Shown: one piece after another, positions 13,226 to 64,000 of the stretch
Position numbering within the stretch: the first letter of the stretch is position 1
Layout: every line of letters starts with the position of its first letter
DNA from: an uncultured Planctomycetaceae bacterium
GTDB taxonomy: Bacteria > Planctomycetota > Planctomycetia > Gemmatales > Gemmataceae
DNA length: 64,000 nucleotides
Assembly (NCBI GenBank): GCA_963771935.1
Contig: CAVYVK010000011.1
Coordinates: 1,302,127-1,366,126 of the forward strand
Direction: 5' to 3'
Notes under the pieces: generated by a model
Database searches by the model: none
The model's input: only the letters and a program-made list of their open reading frames with translations
What the model was told of the DNA's origin: nothing
Program-made: the position numbers and the translations under genes

Positions 13226-13871
13226 GTGACGAACGGATTTCCGACGGCTTGTCCCTGCGCATGCTGGCCCCACCTGGTCGTCCTGGCCGGCGGCCCCGAC
13301 GCTGAACGCCGACGACGACGGCATTTACCAGAAGATCATTTATTTCGTCGTCGGCGACCGAGCCCCGGCGATTCGACCTCAAGGACGACCAGGGCGGCGT
13401 CTGGAAGTCGAGCGAACATTTCGGCAAGAAGTACGTGGTGATCTACTTCTACATGGGCGACTTCATGCCGGCCTGCACCCGCGAGGCCGTCGCCTACCGC
13501 GATGCGTACAACGCCCTCAAGGCCGAGGGAGCGGAGGTCGTCGGCATCAGCGGCGACGAGGCCGCGAGTCATCAGCTGTTCCGGCAGAAATACCAGCTGA
13601 AGCAGACGCTGCTGGCCGACGACAAGGGCGACGGTCGGCAAGGCGTTCGGCCTGGCCTGGTCGGGCGGCGGCGAGTGGTCCTTCAAAGACGAGATGAGGC
13701 AAGGAGGTTCACGCTGAGGCGCGGCATCATGGAATCGCGCTGGACCTGGATCATCGGCAAGGACGGCAAGATCATCTACAAGAGCATGAATCGGTCAATC
13801 CGGACGAGGATGCCAAACAGGTGCTGAAGTTCCTGAGCGAGCGGAACAACAAAGAGCAAGAGCGACCCTGA
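13226..13871 (+). CDS. Peroxiredoxin (Bcp/AhpC-TSA type), at least three frameshifts; N-terminal limit uncertain
   Basis: GDRAPAFDLKDDQGG / GKKYVVIYFYMGDFMPACTREAVAYRDAYNALKAEGAEVVGISGDEAASHQLF / IIGKDGKIIYKSMN...VNPDEDAKQVLKFL is traceable across frames. The stop is at 13869..13871. Confidence 0.6.
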
Positions 13872-54611: not shown

Positions 54612-56060
54612 ATGTACCGCGCCGCAGCCGTCTTCCTCCTTCTCACCGCCCCCTGCGTCTTCGCCGAGGCGAAGCCCGGCGACCCCGTCAAGATCGCCGT
54701 CAGTCCGGCCGCGGCGCCGAAGCCGTCGCTGAAGTATCGGCTCATCCCCGACCGCCGCGACCTGGCGCCCGGCAACGCCGCGACGCTCTATTACCGCGCG
54801 ATGGCGTCCTTCGTGGAAAACAGCGAGCTGTTGAAAGAGATCCGGAAGGACTACTGGTACGAATGGCTGGATACGCCGCTGAAGTGACCTGCCGATGGAG
54901 CAGGTGCGCGAAAAGCTGGCGCTGGCTCGGCGGCTGCTGCACGAAGTCGAGCTGGCGGCCCGCTGCAAGGACTGCGACTGGCAGATCGAGGATCGTCCCG
55001 AGGGCTTCGGCCTGCTCCTGCCCGAGGTGCAGGGCTTCCGCTACGTCGCCGTCGTCCTGGCCGTGAAGGCCCGTTATGAGATCGCTCAGGGAAAATGGGA
55101 CGAGGCGTGTGCAACGTTGCAGACCGGCTACGCGGCTGGCCGGCACATGGGCCAGGGGCCGACGCTGATCCACATCTTCGTCGGCGGCGTGATCACGCGG
55201 TTTATGAACGATCAGGTGCAAACGATGATCCAGCAGCCTGGGGCGCCGAACCTGTACTGGCGCTGACCGATTTGCCGCGGCCGTTCCTCGACCCCGAATT
55301 GGCCATCGAGCAGGAGAGCCGGATGATCGACCGCATGATCCCGTGGGTGAAACGGCTCGACGGGCCGCCGATGTCGGAACCCGAGGCCCAGGCCGCGATG
55401 GACGAGATGCGCAAGAGCATCGACCGCTTCGCCGACGACTATTCGCTCTTGCCGCCGTCGGAACTGGACAAGGCTGCTCAGGCGTTCTTTCTCCTTCAAG
55501 TCCACGGCGAGGCGAAGCGCGGCCTGCTGGCCCGCGACAAGTACACCGCGGAACAGGTCGAGGCGATGCCGCAATTCCAGGTGATCGGTCTGTACACCTA
55601 TCTGGAATATCGGGATGCGCTCGACGAGATGCTGAAATGGGTCCACGCTCCGCACGGCCTGCGCCATCCCGGCTTCCAGAAGGCGTCGGAGAAGTACGCG
55701 CAGGCGCTGACCCGGCTGGATCGCGTGTTCTTCCGCGGCCAGCTGAGCGCCTTCTTTGGCGTCACCGACGCCATCAGCGCATCCTTCCGCAGGGTGTACG
55801 CCGTCGTCGGCCGCACCGACCGGCGGATCGCCGCCCTGGAGTGCGTCGAGGCGCTGCGGATGTACGCCGCCGCGAACGGCAAATGGCCGGATACGCTGGA
55901 CGACGTAACCGACGTGCCGCTGCCGGACGATCCGATGACCGGCAAGCCGTTCGTGTACCACGTGCAGGATACGAAGGCGGTGATCGCCGCGCCGCCCCTC
56001 ACAGCGGGCAAGTCCGATGGGCCGGACGGCGTGACGATCGAGGTGTATCTGCGGAAATGA
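54612..56060 (+). CDS. Secreted hypothetical protein, two frameshifts (near 54885 and 55262)
   Basis: The signal peptide is MYRAAAVFLLLTAPCVFA. A continuous protein is traceable through ORFs 54513, 54895 and 55095. Confidence 0.5.
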
Positions 56061-56083
56061 GATCGCCGATAGAGTTGTTCGTC

Positions 56084-57484
<1,401 letters not shown>

Positions 57485-57727
57485 GCGGTCTCGCGGAGGG
57501 CGGTCCCCTTCTCCGGCGGCGCACCGCTTCGGTTCCGGTGGCGGACGGGCCGACGGTCGGCGATTTTTGGGAGGAAGCCAGGACGGATATGAAATAATGT
57601 ACCGCGGCCAAGGACTCACGGCAAGCGAAACGGCCCTCGCCGTCGCGTCGCTGCGGCCGGCGTTCGCCCCTTCTCTCCCCTACGCATACCATGACCGGCG
57701 GGTTCACGGCCCGTCGCCGCGCTTCAT

Positions 57728-59020
57728 TTGGGGAGTTCCATGCTGAGATGCTTGACAGTCGTTCTGGCGGTCGCCGCCGTTGCGCCGACCGTGCGAGCGG
57801 AAGAAAACTTCTTCCTCCAGGACGGCCAGCGCGTCGTCTTCCTCGGCGACAGCAACACCTTCGCCGGGCAGTACATCGCTTACCTCGACGCCTACCTCTT
57901 CACGCGCTTTCCCGACCGCACATACGAGCTGCTCAACCTCGGCCTGCCCAGCGAAACGGCCTGCGGCCTGTCGGAGCCGGACCACCCCTACCCGCGGCCC
58001 GACGTCCACGAGCGCCTCGACCGCGTCCTGGCGAAGACCAAACCCAACGTCGTCGTGATCTGCTACGGCATGAACGACGGCATCTACTATCCTTTCAGCG
58101 AGGACCGCTTCAAGAAGTACCAGGACGGCATGACGGACGTGATCGACCGCGTCGCGAAGACCGGGGCGAAGGTCGTCGTGGTCACGCCGCCGCCGTTCGA
58201 CCCCCAGCCGGTTCGGGACAAGCTCTTGCCGAAGACGGCCGACAAGTTCAGCTGGGTCCATCCCTACGAGAATTATGACGACGTACTGAAACGCTACTCT
58301 GACTGGCTGCTGACCCTGCGCGACAAGGGCGTGATGGTGGTGGACGCTCATGCGGCCGTGAGCCGTCATCTGGCGGAAATGCGCAAAACCGACCCGAAAT
58401 ACCATCTTTCAGGCGACGGCGTCCACGTCGATGGGGCGGGCCACTGGTTGATCGCCCAGGCGATCCTCCAGGCCTGGAACGCGCCGGCGGACGTGGACGC
58501 GGCCGTGATCGACGCGAAGACGGGCAAGGCGACGGCCGGCGACGTGAGCGAACTTTCAATGGACGGCGGCGCCGTCCGCTTCGCGTGGAAGACGCGCCTG
58601 CCGATGCCGGCGGACCCCGCCTGGAACGACCGACTCGCGGCGGCGGAAAAGATCGCCGACCGCCTCAATCGGTATCGGCTCACCGTCCTGGACCTTCCGC
58701 GCGAGAAATATGCACTGTGGGAGGGCGATCATAAGCTGGCCGAGGTCGGGCGCGAGGAGCTGGCGACCGGCCTTGACCTGACGCGGTTGGCGGACCTTTC
58801 AACGAACGTCCGGGCGGCGGAAGTGGGCAAGCTGGCGGCGGAGCGGTCACACCTGCTTGGCCTGGCGTGGCTGACCGACGTCGGCTACAAGCGACCGGAC
58901 ACGCCGAAGGGAATCCCGCTGGACGACGCCCGGAAACAGGCCGCCGATCTGGAAACGAAGATCCGAAAACTCGCCGAACCACGGCCGATCCTGCTGCGGC
59001 TGGTCCCGGCAGCGAAGTGA
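57728..59020 (+). CDS. Secreted SGNH/GDSL hydrolase-family protein
   Basis: A signal peptide is followed by VVFLGDSNT (block I Ser) and ICYGMNDG (block III). 430 aa. Confidence 0.7.
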   Translation: MGSSMLRCLTVVLAVAAVAPTVRAEENFFLQDGQRVVFLGDSNTFAGQYIAYLDAYLFTRFPDRTYELLNLGLPSETACGLSEPDHPYPRPDVHERLDRVLAKTKPNVVVICYGMNDGIYYPFSEDRFKKYQDGMTDVIDRVAKTGAKVVVVTPPPFDPQPVRDKLLPKTADKFSWVHPYENYDDVLKRYSDWLLTLRDKGVMVVDAHAAVSRHLAEMRKTDPKYHLSGDGVHVDGAGHWLIAQAILQAWNAPADVDAAVIDAKTGKATAGDVSELSMDGGAVRFAWKTRLPMPADPAWNDRLAAAEKIADRLNRYRLTVLDLPREKYALWEGDHKLAEVGREELATGLDLTRLADLSTNVRAAEVGKLAAERSHLLGLAWLTDVGYKRPDTPKGIPLDDARKQAADLETKIRKLAEPRPILLRLVPAAK

Positions 59021-59031
59021 CGCGGGGAACG

Positions 59032-60303
59032 ATGGACGCCGACGCCCGTGACTTGATCGCCCTGCTGCACCAGACGCCGTACCGCTGCGTCCTGGCAGTA
59101 ACCGGAGGCGGCGCCGGGGCCGTCGCCTGGCTTCTGTCCGTGCCCGGCGGCTCGCGCACGGTGCTGGAGGCGGTCGTGCCTTACGCGGGGGAATCCCTGT
59201 CCGAGTTCCTCGGCCGGCGGCCCGAATCTTATTGCTCCGTCGCCGCCAGTCGGATGATGGCGATCCGTGCCCAGCAGCGCGCCCGCTGGCTGGCGCCGGG
59301 AGCGCCGACGATCGGCGTCGGCTGCACCGCCAGCCTGCGCTCCGACCGTCCCAAGCGCGGCGATCACTGCTTCCATGTCTCCGTCCACACCGGCGTACGA
59401 ACCACCACCCATTCCCTCACACTGGTCAAGGAAGCGCGCGACCGCGATGGCGAGGAGCAGGTCCTCGATCGCGTCCTCCTGAACGCCCTCGCGGAGGCGT
59501 TCAACGTTGCCAGCCGATTGGGTGCGTCCCTGCTGCCGGGCGAAGAGGTCATCGCGGAATTAACGATTGAAAACGAGCCTCTATCTCGCTTTTTGGCCGG
59601 CGAAACGCTGGCCCTGCACGTCGAGATGGATGGATTGATGCGGCCGGACGCTCCGAAGCCGGCGCTGCTGCTGCCGGGGGCGTTCAATCCGCTGCACGCC
59701 GGCCACATCGAGTTGGCGAAGGTCGCGTCGGCGGTCGTCGGCGCCCCGGCGGCGTTCGACCTGAGCGTGCTGAACGCCGACAAGCCGCCCTTGGCCGACG
59801 AGGAAGTGCGGCGGCGGCTGGCTCAGTTCGCCTGGCAGGCGCCGGTGTGGCTGACGCGGGCGCCGACTTATACGGAGAAGGCGGAGCTGTTTCCGGGCTG
59901 TGTGTTCGTGGTCGGCGCGGACACGGCGGCCCGCATCGTGCAGCCGCGCTTCTACTACGACAGCGCGGAGCGCATGGCCGAGGCGCTGGGCCGCATCCGC
60001 GCTCTCGGCTGCCGCTTTCTCGTCGCCGGCCGCGCGGGGGCCGACGGCCGCTTCGTCGGCCTGGACGGTCTGAACGTACCGCCGGAACACCGCGACCTGT
60101 TCCGCGCCATCCCGGAGGCGGCGTTCCGCGTGGACCTGTCCTCGACGCTGCTGCGCCGAGAAGGGACACGTGCGGAGCGATGTTTATCGGTCTTCAGGAA
60201 AGTAATGCACGGGTGGATACGGTGTGCCACGGCTGTGTCAGCCGTGTTGGGCGGCCCAAACACGGCTGACACAGCCGTGGCACACCGCGCATTACTTTCC
60301 TGA
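59032..60303 (+). CDS. CinA/PncC-like N-domain fused to a cytidylyltransferase-fold (HxGH) domain; last approx 35 codons run through a palindrome
   Basis: LAVTGGGAGAVAWLLSVPGGSRTVLEAVVPY resembles the CinA C-domain. LLLPGAFNPLHAGHIELA is the nucleotidyltransferase HxGH motif. The stop at 60301..60303 comes immediately after the hairpin 60197..60300. Confidence 0.5.
   Translation: MDADARDLIALLHQTPYRCVLAVTGGGAGAVAWLLSVPGGSRTVLEAVVPYAGESLSEFLGRRPESYCSVAASRMMAIRAQQRARWLAPGAPTIGVGCTASLRSDRPKRGDHCFHVSVHTGVRTTTHSLTLVKEARDRDGEEQVLDRVLLNALAEAFNVASRLGASLLPGEEVIAELTIENEPLSRFLAGETLALHVEMDGLMRPDAPKPALLLPGAFNPLHAGHIELAKVASAVVGAPAAFDLSVLNADKPPLADEEVRRRLAQFAWQAPVWLTRAPTYTEKAELFPGCVFVVGADTAARIVQPRFYYDSAERMAEALGRIRALGCRFLVAGRAGADGRFVGLDGLNVPPEHRDLFRAIPEAAFRVDLSSTLLRREGTRAERCLSVFRKVMHGWIRCATAVSAVLGGPNTADTAVAHRALLS
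60197..60300. repeat. 104-bp compound palindrome at the boundary of a lower-GC segment
   Basis: The outer stem is GGAAAGTAATGC (60197..60208) with GCATTACTTTCC (60289..60300). The inner, nearly loop-less palindrome GGTGTGCCACGGCTGTGTCAGCCGTGTTGGGC / GCCCAACACGGCTGACACAGCCGTGGCACACC spans 60221..60286. Confidence 0.9.
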
Positions 60304-60470
60304 CGAGCTATAGTTATGACGAATCTCGACGCTCCCCCACGCCGCGCGAAGGCCGCACAAATTGCTTGCCTTGTAGTCGCTGTAATGGGAGAATCGAGCA
60401 GTTTCGCAGTAACACTCCGCTTGGGCGCCGCGGTCGAGCGGCTCTCAGGTCACGCGCGCACGGGAGTTGT

Positions 60471-60671
60471 ATGGACGCCGCCGACGAGATTGAGTCGCGC
60501 CTGTCAGGCGACGCTGTGGAGACGAAACGGCGCGTGGACATATGGCGCGCCGAAGTGGAGGCTTTCAGGGATGGCGGCGAAGACGCTGCGGCCGCGGTTT
60601 TGAGAGAGCACATGAACTCCCTCAAGCTGCGATTCGACAAGGCGATGAAGCAACTGGACGAAAAACTCTAA
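60471..60671 (+). CDS. Small (66 aa) charged helical/coiled-coil protein, first gene of a three-gene module
   Basis: MDAADEIESRLSGDAVETKRRVDIWRAEVEAFRDGGEDAAAAVLREHMNSLKLRFDKAMKQLDEKL ends 15 nt before the ATPase start. It has no recognisable domain. Confidence 0.45.
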   Translation: MDAADEIESRLSGDAVETKRRVDIWRAEVEAFRDGGEDAAAAVLREHMNSLKLRFDKAMKQLDEKL

Positions 60672-60686
60672 CGGAATCCGCCCGCT

Positions 60687-62852
60687 ATGCTCACACCGAA
60701 GATGCTCAAGGTCCGCGGCTTCCGCGGTTTCATGGGACAGCAAGAGTTCCACTTCGATAAACCGGCCGTCGTCCTGTTCGGCGCGAACCACTGCGGCAAG
60801 AGCAGCACCCTGAACGCAATCGAATGGTGCCTTTTCGGAGACGAGTGCAGCGGCGCGCAGACGAACATCCGCGAGCGGGTAGGGTGGAAAATCCCCAACC
60901 GCCACATGCGTTCGCTCGATGTCCTGGTGGAACTCGTTCTGAACGGCCCGGATGGCGAATACACCCTCAAGCGCTGCCATAAGGCGACAAAGCGGGCGCG
61001 CTCGGCCGCGCTGGAACTCACCCTGCCGGATGGCGAGATCCTACAAGGAGAGGACGCCGACAGCCGCCTTACTCAGCTGCTCCGCTGCTCATTCCGGGAC
61101 TTCATGACCACGGTCTACCAGCATCAGGAAACGATCCGCGACATCCTCACTCAGATGCCGAAGGAGCGCAACGACGCAATCGACCGATTGCTCGGCCTGT
61201 CCGAGTACCGCAATCTGCTGAGCGGGATGAATGCCGCCGCCCCGGCACGCTGGCAGAAAGAAATGACCGGCCGCTTCGAGGCCTTTGAGGGGAAGGTGAA
61301 GGCCATCCTGATTGACCGGGAAAAGGCGGTCCTAGAGAAGCGTGCGGAAGCCACGAAGGGCGGCCTCTCCAAAGAGCAGCTGACCGCCAAGTCGGCTTTG
61401 GCGATCGCTGTTGAAGTGCAAAAAGCGCTCAAGAGCTTCGCCGATGAAGCGGGCATCGAACCGGCCGTCCTCGCCATTCCGGAAGCTTGGGAGGGGCTAC
61501 ACGATTTCGAGGAAACCACCAAGCAGGAAATCAGTCGATTGCGAAGCGCAATACCGCTTGCAGGGGAGCAGCAAAGGTTGTTTGGCCGAAGAGGGGAGGC
61601 GAATAGGCTGATTGAGGACTTTAAGGATCTAAGAAAGAGAGAGCAAGAAATATGCGGCAGCCTGTCCAGCCTCGGCAGGGAACACGCTGGACAGGAAACG
61701 GTTCGTAAGCGCCTGGCTGACACCAAGAAGACTCTGAAAGAGGCCAAAACCAAGCGCCAAGAAGCCGATGCGCGGAGTTCCCTCATCCGTGAAGCCATCG
61801 ACTACTTGGAGAACGTGGGTGCGGTGGAACCGGACGGCAGGTGTCCGGTCTGCGAAGGCGAAGCGCCCGAGCTGCTACAGAAACTCCGTTCCTGGGTCGA
61901 AGAGTCCCTCAGCCAGCGGATCGCCGCCATTCAGAACGAGATCGAATCGCTGCAGAAGCGCGAGAAGCAGTTGCAGTCCGTCGCGGAACACTATGACGAC
62001 GCCAACAAGAAACAAGAGAAAATGCTCGAGGACCAGGTGGACGGCCGTCGCAAGGCTGGAATGCTTTTTGAAAAGAAGTTGACGGACCAGGACGACCCGG
62101 CAGCCCTACTCAATGTCGAGGTGAAGCGGATCGAGGACCGGCTGAACGAGCTGGCCAAGGCCATCCGGCAAAAGCAGGAGCGCCTGGACGATATCGCCAA
62201 ACGCCTCGATGACGTGCATGTGATCGTGGAAATCCTCCAGCCGGAGCGGAAAAAGGAGATCGCCCAGCAGATCCAGCAAACTCCCGAATACCAGGAACTG
62301 GAGGAAGCCCGAGACGCTGCTGCTGCTTTTCTCGGCGACGTGGAGGCAGTCAAGGAGGCCGTAAGCAAGGTCGCCAACGAGGAGGCGCGCGACAAGCTCG
62401 CTGCGGCGGAGAGCGCGATTGAGGCGTTTTTCCGCCAATTGACCAAGCATCCGGCAGTTCAGCGGATCAAGCTGCACCACAAGACGGACGCATCAGGGCG
62501 CAACAGCTACGACATCACGGACCAGAACGACAGCGATCTCTTCCCATTCCTGAGCCAAGGCGATTTGAACGCCCTGGCCCTGGCAATCTTCCTGGGTCTG
62601 GTCTCCTCAAGCGCACAGGCGGACGGGTTTGGGTTCGTAATCCTTGACGATCCCTCGCAGAGCCTCGACCGACCCCACAAGGAGCAGCTGGTCGATGTGC
62701 TGGACCGTGTGGCCCAGTCCAAGCGGGTCGTTCTCGCCACGATGGACAGCGAGTTTCGCGAGCTGCTCCGTACACGGTTAACGCGAGATAAAGCGGAGTA
62801 TATATTTGAGGAATGGACGACTCAGCAGGGCGCACAAGCGAAACGAGGGTGA
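60687..62852 (+). CDS. Rad50/SbcC/SMC-like ABC ATPase with a central CxxC zinc hook
   Basis: Walker A is VVLFGANHCGKSSTLNAIEW. A long E/K/L/Q-rich central region contains DGRCPVCEGEAPEL at about residue 385 of 721. The C-terminal signature-like segment is FLSQGDLNALALAIFLG and the Walker B is FGFVILDDPSQSLD. The ORF is intact. Confidence 0.8.
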   Translation: MLTPKMLKVRGFRGFMGQQEFHFDKPAVVLFGANHCGKSSTLNAIEWCLFGDECSGAQTNIRERVGWKIPNRHMRSLDVLVELVLNGPDGEYTLKRCHKATKRARSAALELTLPDGEILQGEDADSRLTQLLRCSFRDFMTTVYQHQETIRDILTQMPKERNDAIDRLLGLSEYRNLLSGMNAAAPARWQKEMTGRFEAFEGKVKAILIDREKAVLEKRAEATKGGLSKEQLTAKSALAIAVEVQKALKSFADEAGIEPAVLAIPEAWEGLHDFEETTKQEISRLRSAIPLAGEQQRLFGRRGEANRLIEDFKDLRKREQEICGSLSSLGREHAGQETVRKRLADTKKTLKEAKTKRQEADARSSLIREAIDYLENVGAVEPDGRCPVCEGEAPELLQKLRSWVEESLSQRIAAIQNEIESLQKREKQLQSVAEHYDDANKKQEKMLEDQVDGRRKAGMLFEKKLTDQDDPAALLNVEVKRIEDRLNELAKAIRQKQERLDDIAKRLDDVHVIVEILQPERKKEIAQQIQQTPEYQELEEARDAAAAFLGDVEAVKEAVSKVANEEARDKLAAAESAIEAFFRQLTKHPAVQRIKLHHKTDASGRNSYDITDQNDSDLFPFLSQGDLNALALAIFLGLVSSSAQADGFGFVILDDPSQSLDRPHKEQLVDVLDRVAQSKRVVLATMDSEFRELLRTRLTRDKAEYIFEEWTTQQGAQAKRG

Positions 62853-63381
62853 AACGGCTTTGAAGGACCGCGTTTACCTGCACCTGACCGCGTTGCACCG
62901 GCGCCATGGCGCACGCGAATTCGGCAAGCTCTGTCAAAAGCTTCTCGCTATCGCCTACCGCGTGGCCGGATTCGGCCACGTCGTCAAGCGCGGAGTGCAA
63001 GGCGTCGATGTGGATGCGGCCCTCGACGGCCGCGTGAAATATGCCACGGAGGTGAAGACGACTGTAACAAATTACGTCCACTTCTTGCCAAAAGACGTGG
63101 AAGGCCTGTACGCTCGTGGCGCAGATGGCTGCCAGCCTGTACTGGCGGTTCTCCGCCTTGCGCCCTTGTCGGAATGGTATCTGGTGGACGCCCGCCGCCT
63201 GGCCGCGCGCCGCCTACACATCCCTTCTCTGCGACCCTCCCGTCTTCATGATCTGGAAGGCCGCATCTTGCCGTCTTTCGACGAAGCCGTGCAAGAACAC
63301 GCTGATGGCGCATTGGACAGTTCACAGTCTTACCTGGATGGGGTCCTGCAGCGTCTCGGAGTCGAGGTCTGCTTGACCTGA
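62806..63381 (+). CDS. Small PD-(D/E)xK (Mrr/restriction-endonuclease-like) nuclease candidate; start either ATG 62806 (47-nt overlap) or TTG 62860
   Basis: VKRGVQGVDVDAALDGRVKYATEVKTT fits D-x12-E-x-K. The gene lies immediately downstream of the ATPase on the same strand. Confidence 0.5.
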   Translation: MRNGRLSRAHKRNEGETALKDRVYLHLTALHRRHGAREFGKLCQKLLAIAYRVAGFGHVVKRGVQGVDVDAALDGRVKYATEVKTTVTNYVHFLPKDVEGLYARGADGCQPVLAVLRLAPLSEWYLVDARRLAARRLHIPSLRPSRLHDLEGRILPSFDEAVQEHADGALDSSQSYLDGVLQRLGVEVCLT

Positions 63382-63405
63382 AAGCTGCTATAAAGTTACG
63401 AATTC

Positions 63406-63438
63406 CATCGTAGATTATCGCAAGGGTGATCTACGATG
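63406..63438. terminator. Hairpin between convergent genes (possible bidirectional terminator)
   Basis: CATCGTAGAT (63406..63415) pairs with ATCTACGATG (63429..63438), followed by the T-rich TCCGCTTTCCTGTCTTTTT. Confidence 0.5.
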
Positions 63439-63508
63439 TCCGCTTTCCTGTCTTTTTCGGCGGCCACACCTGGCGACTGCCCGACCGCAAGCCGTAATGC
63501 CCGCCCGG

Positions 63509-64000
63509 TCAACTGGACGGGCTGGTTTGGATTTCGTCCCGCGCCATACCGCCGAGCAACCCCATGACAGGTTCCTTGAAGTGTTGGTCCAAATTCGTGG
63601 GATCAATACTCCAGAGGCAGGCGAGCTGCGTCACGCAATCCTCGTTCGGACGGGAAACACCTATGTTCCGGCCTGGCTCGGTCGTAATCGCTCCTCCGTC
63701 AAAGAAGCGAAAGCCGAGGTTGCGCTCCTCCTTCGTCTGGGCGCCTTCGTCCCAGAGAGTAAGACTCTTCTGGCCAAGCCAACCGTAGCCTCGGATCAGC
63801 CGCCCCTTCCGGCGCAGGGCCCAGATATGTAACTCGACTTCTCCGTGCGTGCAGAAGTATTGGGCGTGCACGAACTGCCGACTCAGCCGCTCAAGGAGCG
63901 GTTTGACAAACGTCTCCGCTCGGCTTGGGGGAAATAGGGCGGTGCTCACCGCCAATGTCCAGTCCGCCAGCGGCGGGGTGACGAAGACGGACGCGTGGTG
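63509..64000 (-). CDS. Hypothetical protein, C-terminal part (frame stays open to the window end)
   Basis: The frame of ORF 63509..63955 remains open upstream to 64000 (HHASVFVTPPLADWT-LAVSTALFPPSRAETFVKPLLERLS...). Composition is ordinary and I recognise no domain. Confidence 0.45.
   Translation of the reverse strand, partial: HHASVFVTPPLADWTLAVSTALFPPSRAETFVKPLLERLSRQFVHAQYFCTHGEVELHIWALRRKGRLIRGYGWLGQKSLTLWDEGAQTKEERNLGFRFFDGGAITTEPGRNIGVSRPNEDCVTQLACLWSIDPTNLDQHFKEPVMGLLGGMARDEIQTSPSS

Follow-up and report, generated by a model that had tools for sequence, protein, structure and literature searches.

The 64,000-nucleotide (nt) stretch analyzed here (hereafter the window), taken from contig CAVYVK010000011.1 of an uncultured Planctomycetaceae bacterium, carries near its right end an operon of three genes, which encode a small acidic protein, a Rad50/SbcC/LmuB-like ATPase and a stand-alone nuclease. 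The most likely reading of this trio is a minimal, so far undescribed relative of the Lamassu defense systems. A preliminary description of this DNA had proposed three intact, tightly packed and co-directional genes, and such open reading frames (ORFs) were indeed found, separated by 15 nt (genes 1 and 2) and 7 nt (genes 2 and 3):

60471..60671, + strand: gene 1, acidic all-helical protein of 66 amino acids (aa)
60687..62852, + strand: gene 2, Rad50/SbcC/LmuB-like ATP-binding cassette (ABC) ATPase of 721 aa, with coiled-coil arms and a CPVC zinc hook
62860..63381, + strand: gene 3, stand-alone nuclease of 173 aa, predicted to be of the Hjc-type PD-(D/E)xK class, with long N- and C-terminal helices

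The motifs previously read in the ATPase, i.e., a Walker A, a CPVC at mid-length, a signature-like sequence and a Walker B, were located at residues 32, 386, 622 and 652, respectively. Their conservation, as that of all residues discussed below, was counted in 37 complete trios:

60780..60806, + strand: Walker A GANHCGKSS, residues 32-40, with K38 conserved in 37/37 trios
61842..61853, + strand: CPVC zinc hook, at residue 386 of 721
62640..62663, + strand: Walker B and D-loop ILDDPSQS, residues 652-659, placed by alignment to Rad50

The hook residues C386, P387 and C389 were invariant both in 25 homologues and in 37/37 complete trios. In the Walker B, D654 and D655 were conserved throughout (37/37), this DD standing where Rad50 has DE. 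The signature at residue 622 reads LSQGD, where Rad50 has LSGGE, and the His-switch position is occupied by Met, Pro or Ser in all 37 trios, never by His.

When compared with the PADLOC models, gene 2 matched best LmuB PDLC03859 (E = 1.5e-49, 168 bits), residues 19-706 aligning with positions 17-604 of the 611 of the model. Other LmuB models, PbeC (to 4e-19), PDC-S06, mad3 and DndD followed with lower scores. Pfam returned AAA_23 and SMC_N, and NCBIfam only Rad50 and SMC matches far below threshold. As a control, SbcC of E. coli K-12 (L073) was found to match the LmuB models PDLC03865 and PDLC03859 with 83-84 bits (E ~1e-24). Because a genuine SbcC reaches such scores on the same models, the LmuB label alone is no proof of Lamassu. 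Judged from these scores, gene 2 appears nearer to the LmuB model than SbcC is, the label indicating relatedness without proving membership. This is completed by a profile of 25 homologues, which matched solved Rad50 heads in the PDB (E ~1e-19). No Metallophos domain was detected in the trio with Pfam and NCBIfam, in agreement with the earlier statement that an SbcD/Mre11 phosphoesterase is missing and that the locus is not a canonical sbcCD.

The start of gene 3 is most likely the TTG at 62860, giving 173 aa; its homologues measure ~172 aa and usually start ~1-10 nt past the ATPase stop. The protein is hence small and stand-alone as announced, slightly below the 175-190 aa first proposed. Its catalytic core lies as follows:

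63007..63057, + strand: gene 3 catalytic core, with D50 at 63007-63009, E64 at 63049-63051 and K66 at 63055-63057

The D/E/K residues of the restriction-endonuclease-fold signature noticed beforehand are thus confirmed, the spacing being D50-x13-E64-x-K66 and not x12. D50 and E64 were each conserved in 37/37 trios and K66 in 36/37, and the three were invariant in an alignment of 65 gene 3 homologues. From this alignment, an AlphaFold2 model was obtained with a predicted local distance difference test score (pLDDT) of 92.3 and a predicted template modeling score (pTM) of 0.90. When this model was searched against the PDB with Foldseek, the top 20 matches were all archaeal Hjc/Hje (best E = 5e-6; target-normalized template modeling score of 0.72-0.75; 20-26% identity). 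RecU/PrfA ranked after them and the viral library also returned resolvases, while Cap4, Mrr and NucS were not among the top matches.

Profile comparison pointed to the same family, since the gene 3 profile aligned with Hjc of Pfu (1gef; E = 0.007), VDvDa falling on VDLVA and iEVK on IEVK. Gene 3 itself reached 12.0 bits on PF01870 (Pfam cut-off 21.1) and 15.3 bits on NF040854 (NCBIfam threshold 70), i.e., below both limits, and 24 of the 65 homologues matched PF01870 at E<=0.1 (best 1e-4). On the basis of the predicted structure, gene 3 can confidently be assigned a Holliday-junction-resolvase fold of Hjc type with a conserved D/E/K active site; the nuclease fold supposed beforehand is present and its type made precise. 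Compared with Hjc, the model has an additional N-terminal helix (3-35) and an additional C-terminal helix (130-165), i.e., ~50 aa more. PADLOC gave no match for gene 3 or for any of the 65 family members, and 0/65 homologues matched an LmuA model at E<=0.1. An exhaustive search of 1.84 billion representatives returned only 204 gene 3 clusters; among the matches listed, the longest was 275 aa, full-length members measured ~165-190 aa, and none was fused into a larger LmuA-like protein.

Gene 1 starts at ATG 60471, with GGGAG 4 nt upstream. Its homologues form 62 clusters, nearly all of exactly 66 aa, without Pfam domain or informative name (mostly unnamed or 'hypothetical protein', the JGI label of P0250 being evidently spurious). 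The alternative TTG ORF of 101 aa was ruled out by this homologue length. The AlphaFold2 model shows helices at 3-10 and 15-65 (pLDDT 85.9), so that the small coiled-coil protein of the preliminary description is indeed small, helical and acidic, with 66 aa in place of 101 and a coiled coil that is not established. The isoelectric point is 4.9, for a family median of 5.2, and 84% of members are acidic. Since the protein is acidic, a role in contacts with other proteins is favored over DNA binding. The model had no Foldseek neighbor, gene 1 and the 62 family members matched no Pfam or PADLOC family apart from noise such as HTH_SUN2 and JetA, and 0/62 matched LmuC models even at E<=0.1. The Rad50-binding domain of SbcD was considered as a further candidate and set aside, as the comparison of the gene 1 profile with E. 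coli SbcD gave an hhalign probability of 0.1%, i.e., no sequence support. From its position upstream of the ATPase only, it may be suggested that gene 1 is the counterpart of LmuC or of the C-terminal Rad50-binding segment of SbcD.

When 185,579 species genomes were scanned, 67 loci were recovered. In bacteria, they were found in Planctomycetota (Gemmataceae, Pirellulales), Clostridia, Chloroflexota, Aerophobetes, Nitrospirota, Actinomycetota and Acidobacteriota, as well as in Omnitrophota, Thermotogae, Dadabacteria and Proteobacteria; the archaeal loci belong to Micrarchaeota, Pacearchaeota, Nanoarchaeota, Hydrothermarchaeota and Bathyarchaeia. This spread over more than 15 bacterial and archaeal phyla is patchy and does not follow taxonomy. 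The ATPase of the window shares 52% identity with Gemmataceae homologues, 43% with that of a Clostridia metagenome-assembled genome (MAG) and 42% with that of a Micrarchaeota MAG. Gene order was then considered in 50 sources with a full-length ATPase encoded by a single ORF. The gene 1 family stands directly upstream of the ATPase in 43/50 (median gap ~11 nt) and the gene 3 family directly downstream in 43/50 (median gap ~5 nt), in bacteria as in archaea, so the module first proposed from one sequence is syntenic elsewhere. The trio proteins co-evolve, as illustrated by the correlation of pairwise identities (mirror tree) between genes 1 and 2 (r = 0.74) and between genes 2 and 3 (r = 0.87; Mantel p = 0.001). 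A flank search revealed no fourth partner, no other neighbor recurring in more than 3 loci. Taken as a unit, the operon is conserved, co-inherited and horizontally mobile, and the catalytic motifs of its two enzymes are intact.

The exceptions to this synteny comprise the most distant ATPases (L057, L063, L065 and L066), a few loci whose small ORF is too divergent to be detected, and Planctomycetota loci without nuclease (L005, L038 and the loci of P0024 and P0005). The contigs of these last four keep the 66-aa gene and the ATPase; on that of P0005, a HerA/DUF87 ATPase is followed by the gene 1-ATPase pair and then by a complete sbcD-sbcC pair. A separate sbcDC pair was seen nearby in only one inspected locus, and homologues of the ATPase are not normally placed beside sbcD. 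Two contigs of the same Micrarchaeota MAG (L007 and L026) each carry the ATPase and gene 1; L026 ends before any gene 3, and the full trio is found only in L007. In an Acidobacteriota locus (L045), a gene 3-like ORF (13243-13632) lies ~3 kb downstream of the ATPase and is not adjacent to it.

Distant LmuB-like ATPases of Bathyarchaeia and Anaerolineae (L057, L064, L065 and L066) showed another arrangement, with a large ORF, a tiny ORF (51-77 aa) and the ATPase in this order. The large ORF is PDC-M41A-like in L057 and L065, resembles a UvrD/GajB-like helicase in L066 and encodes 410 aa without match in L064. None of the partners of these four ATPases matched LmuA or LmuC. There may be a wider undescribed radiation of systems built on LmuB-like ATPases.

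With regard to genomic context, 137 ORFs taken from the flanks of 28 loci were compared, and strong matches to SIR2 and HerA, down to 1e-226, occurred in several loci. Defense neighbors elsewhere include BREX PglZ/BrxL and DruA (Druantia). At other loci, the trio stands beside an OLD-family TOPRIM ATPase (OLD/Gabija-like) and JAB/ThiF genes, or beside a type I restriction-modification (R-M) system and a toxin-antitoxin pair. Another is accompanied by integrase, DEAD and DUF87 genes, and is the only locus with a nearby integrase. An association with defense islands was encountered at several loci elsewhere, in a qualitative sense.

In the window, the operon occupies an islet of ~0.60 GC content (GC), for ~0.69 upstream. 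The drop in GC announced in the preliminary description is real, from 0.68-0.71 at 58.5-60.2 kb to 0.57-0.62 from 60.25 kb to the window end, and so is the palindrome at its start, which proved to be a compound palindrome of 128 bp. The low-GC stretch runs on past the window end in a sister contig (L068), which is 99.6% identical to window positions 56001-64000 and extends further. The features of the islet outside the three genes are the following:

60185..60312, no strand: compound palindrome of 128 bp found by repeat search, left edge of the low-GC islet
63407..63437, + strand: putative hairpin with a 9-bp stem ATCGTAGAT...ATCTACGAT, then a T-rich tract, read from the sequence
63509..64000, on to ~64009, - strand: convergent ORF of ~166 aa inside the low-GC islet, its ATG just past the window end
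L068 7274-7401: counterpart of the palindrome
L068 11598-11620: repeat of part of the palindrome right arm (about window position 64500, outside the window)

The inner arms of the palindrome (60220-60251 and 60256-60287) are 97% complementary and its outer arms (60185-60212 and 60285-60312) 86%. It is present in a single copy in the window, where 0 matches are expected by chance, and shares sequence with the 3' end of the cytidylyltransferase-like host gene that lies upstream. In L068, the low-GC stretch is ~3.7 kb long with a GC of 0.595, as compared with 0.66-0.71 on its upstream side and 0.73-0.78 on its downstream side, and a 23-nt part of the palindrome right arm recurs as a 20/23 direct repeat where the GC returns to host level. 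Because this repeat marks the far edge of the low-GC stretch, it suggests an insertion of ~4.2 kb into a palindromic site, or one that created such a site. No recombinase or transposase was found among the genes of the islet. PADLOC found nothing in the genes downstream of the islet in L068, and the neighbors in the source genome are ordinary or unfamiliar genes.

The hairpin downstream of gene 3 is possibly an operon terminator, with low confidence; it was not called by a consensus terminator scan, its loop being of 13 nt, and a promoter scan of the locus gave nothing informative. The convergent ORF had no Pfam or PADLOC match, is frameshifted in L068 and is not a conserved partner of the trio. 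The ATPase of L068 (7776-9947) is broken into three ORFs of 200, 406 and 137 aa, the window copy being intact. The two sequences differ by 14 indels in 8 kb, and the breaks are due either to long-read assembly errors or to real pseudogenization.

Considered together, these results describe a self-contained machine that is probably an anti-phage or anti-plasmid system of Lamassu/SbcCD type, the defense function itself being plausible from the genomic context. By analogy with SbcCD and Lamassu, the ATPase would dimerize through its CPxC zinc hook and act as an ATP-gated sensor or clamp for abnormal DNA structures, the candidate targets being free ends, hairpins, cruciforms and branched replication intermediates of invaders. 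Because of the DD in its Walker B and the Met in place of the His-switch, it is predicted to hydrolyze ATP slowly and to behave as a switch rather than as a motor. Gene 1, given its position, is probably a bridge between the ATPase and the nuclease or a regulator of both. The Hjc-type nuclease would be the effector, held inactive or recruited by the ATPase, and engagement of the sensor would license it to cut branched or duplex DNA. This could lead to the destruction of invader replication intermediates or to abortive infection, the data not deciding between them. A more specific proposal is possible but tentative, namely that the trio would have branched off the Rad50/SbcC lineage independently, as a minimal form in which a zinc-hook ATPase switch, with the help of a 66-aa adaptor, guides a junction-resolving (Hjc-type) nuclease to invader DNA that is branched or forms hairpins or cruciforms. 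The trio would then stand, as a living intermediate, between Lamassu and the SbcCD complexes of repair, and both its class of effector and its logic of activation (by structure-specific cleavage, not by LmuA oligomerization) would be unseen in described defense systems.

Several observations weigh against a defense system of Lamassu type. The defense role is inferred, the association with defense islands is qualitative and concerns several loci, and the islet has no recognizable defense neighbors in the source genome. Relatives of the ATPase and of gene 3 were absent from 72,556 plasmids, 50,697 phage genomes and IMG/VR contigs. Neither gene 1 nor gene 3 has a match among the LmuC and LmuA models, the order is small protein, ATPase, nuclease, with the nuclease downstream of the ATPase, and the layout thus departs from the typical LmuA/LmuC/LmuB one, as had been noticed. 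The 25-homologue profile that matches Rad50 heads matched no solved LmuB/DdmC chain at E<=1e-3. Besides, Hjc-type enzymes are classically enzymes of repair and recombination. The trio could be a DNA repair or recombination module, in which stalled forks, hairpins or Holliday junctions are the sites to which the Rad50-like ATPase recruits the Hjc-type resolvase, i.e., an SbcCD analogue with a different nuclease and without immune role. Such a module would fit the ATPase profile, which matches Rad50 heads best among solved structures, the genuine junction resolvases that are the closest structures to gene 3, the relative that adjoins sbcDC near dnaA/dnaN/gyrB and the islet without flanking defense genes in the source genome. 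It nevertheless seems unlikely, as the family is rare and patchy (67 loci for 185,579 species genomes, 204 gene 3 clusters for 1.84 billion representatives), its distribution goes against taxonomy and the islet is compositionally foreign (0.595 GC in a genome of 0.66-0.78 GC). Moreover, variants without nuclease exist, no member retains the catalytic Glu or the His-switch that repair Rad50/SbcC have, and the trio is repeatedly found beside BREX, R-M, OLD and SIR2-HerA genes.

The opposite simplification, in which the trio is a divergent member of a catalogued Lamassu subtype (e.g., PDDEXK or 'hypothetical'; Millman 2022) whose LmuA and LmuC drifted below detection by hidden Markov models (HMMs), is slightly more doubtful still. 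In its favor, gene 2 matches the LmuB model over its full length, Lamassu is very modular, has PDDEXK and Mrr nucleases and short lmuC genes, occurs in archaea, and its LmuC is reported too diverse for sequence methods. However, not a single homologue among the 65 of gene 3 and the 62 of gene 1 matches LmuA or LmuC models at E<=0.1, gene 3 leaves no room for the C-terminal docking domain of LmuA and shows no fusions among the matches listed, and the nuclease stands downstream of the ATPase, not upstream. At 168 bits on a model of 611 positions, the LmuB score befits a relative and not a member, SbcC reaching 84 bits, and a Hjc-type Lamassu effector was not found in the literature searched. Very improbable, finally, is a trio that serves the mobile islet itself, by processing the hairpins or cruciforms of its palindromic ends when the islet inserts or excises, or as an addiction module. 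The islet is bracketed by the 128-bp palindrome and the 20/23 repeat of one of its arms, and cruciforms and hairpins are substrates of Hjc-type enzymes as well as of SbcC-like ATPases. Against this, the islet has no recombinase or transposase, an integrase is nearby in only one locus, and the flanks differ completely among loci, no shared end structures being seen, although none were sought.

As an anti-phage or anti-plasmid system, the trio would matter in several respects. Its three proteins add up to ~960 aa, the smallest size encountered in this analysis for a machine of this kind, and its compactness would help in studying how a nuclease is licensed by an SMC-like sensor. Among the immune systems of bacteria, Lamassu is one of the commonest. 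The recently proposed scenario in which it was exapted from SbcCD could be tested directly with the trio, because the latter has retained Rad50-like traits (one CxxC hook only, and a small gene that precedes the ATPase), has a nuclease of another class in a different place, and spans bacteria and DPANN and other archaea. If the Hjc-type effector is truly structure-specific, this would be an immunity aimed at replication or recombination intermediates. Our results also indicate that matches to 'LmuB' HMMs in metagenomes hide undescribed systems. Since genuine SbcC triggers the same models, isolated 'LmuB' matches are not specific for Lamassu.

Compared with known systems, the trio appears, from its sequences, to work like Lamassu and SbcCD, but it falls outside Lamassu in several of the tests applied and lacks the nuclease that defines SbcCD. 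It is described neither by any PADLOC 2.0 model, only gene 2 being labeled (LmuB) and no model assigning the trio to a described system, nor in the literature searched, where nothing relevant was found on a Hjc-type effector associated with an SMC-like ATPase or with Lamassu. Lamassu has been proposed to derive from SbcCD and senses double-stranded DNA ends and palindromic DNA (PMC12663957; PMC11707656). Its gene order is lmuA-lmuC-lmuB; LmuC is reported to be too diverse for sequence methods, and both LmuC and the C-terminal domain of SbcD are encoded directly upstream of the ATPase (PMC12663957). Long LmuB (~800 aa) has a Walker B hhhhDD and a single CxxC, a short LmuB of ~600 aa being also known (PMC12663957). 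The trio resembles Lamassu (LmuA-LmuB-LmuC; DdmABC of Vibrio cholerae) by its three genes, with a small protein directly upstream of the ATPase and a nuclease effector, by LmuB as best curated model of gene 2, by its patchy distribution and by its defense-island neighbors. It shares with long LmuB the ILDD Walker B and the single CPxC hook (37/37 trios), whereas the 721 aa of gene 2 fall between the short and long forms. In contrast with LmuA, the predicted effector is a 173-aa Hjc-type resolvase without C-terminal docking domain, the model consisting of a core and two long helices.

With SbcCD and Mre11-Rad50, the trio has in common a coiled-coil ABC ATPase with a CxxC zinc hook and heads alignable to Rad50 (E ~1e-19), encoded in an operon with a nuclease, gene 1 standing where the C-terminal Rad50-binding segment of SbcD sits. 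Instead of a calcineurin-type phosphoesterase, however, its nuclease is a PD-(D/E)xK enzyme. Gene 2 has Asp for the Walker B Glu, Met for the His-switch and the signature LSQGD, its coiled coil is much shorter (721 aa vs. 1048 aa for E. coli SbcC), and gene 1 has no sequence similarity to SbcD (hhalign probability 0.1%). The counter-invader operon PbeABCD includes a nuclease and a rapidly evolving small protein, and its coiled-coil ABC ATPase with a CxC Zn-hook is universally linked to a DndE (ribbon-helix-helix, RHH) partner (PMC10853773). The trio is similar to DndD/PbeC systems in combining a coiled-coil ABC ATPase bearing a Zn hook with a nuclease and a small protein, but its hook is CPxC and not CxC, it has neither a DndE/PbeD RHH partner nor an HKD-helicase, and the PbeC score of gene 2 is much weaker than its LmuB score. 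Gene 3, finally, shares its predicted fold and the D...E-x-K catalytic arrangement with Hjc/Hje (PF01870) and with bacterial and phage RecU. Unlike Hjc/Hje, it stays below the Pfam and NCBIfam thresholds, is longer by ~50 aa, is mostly bacterial and is obligately linked to an SMC-like ATPase.

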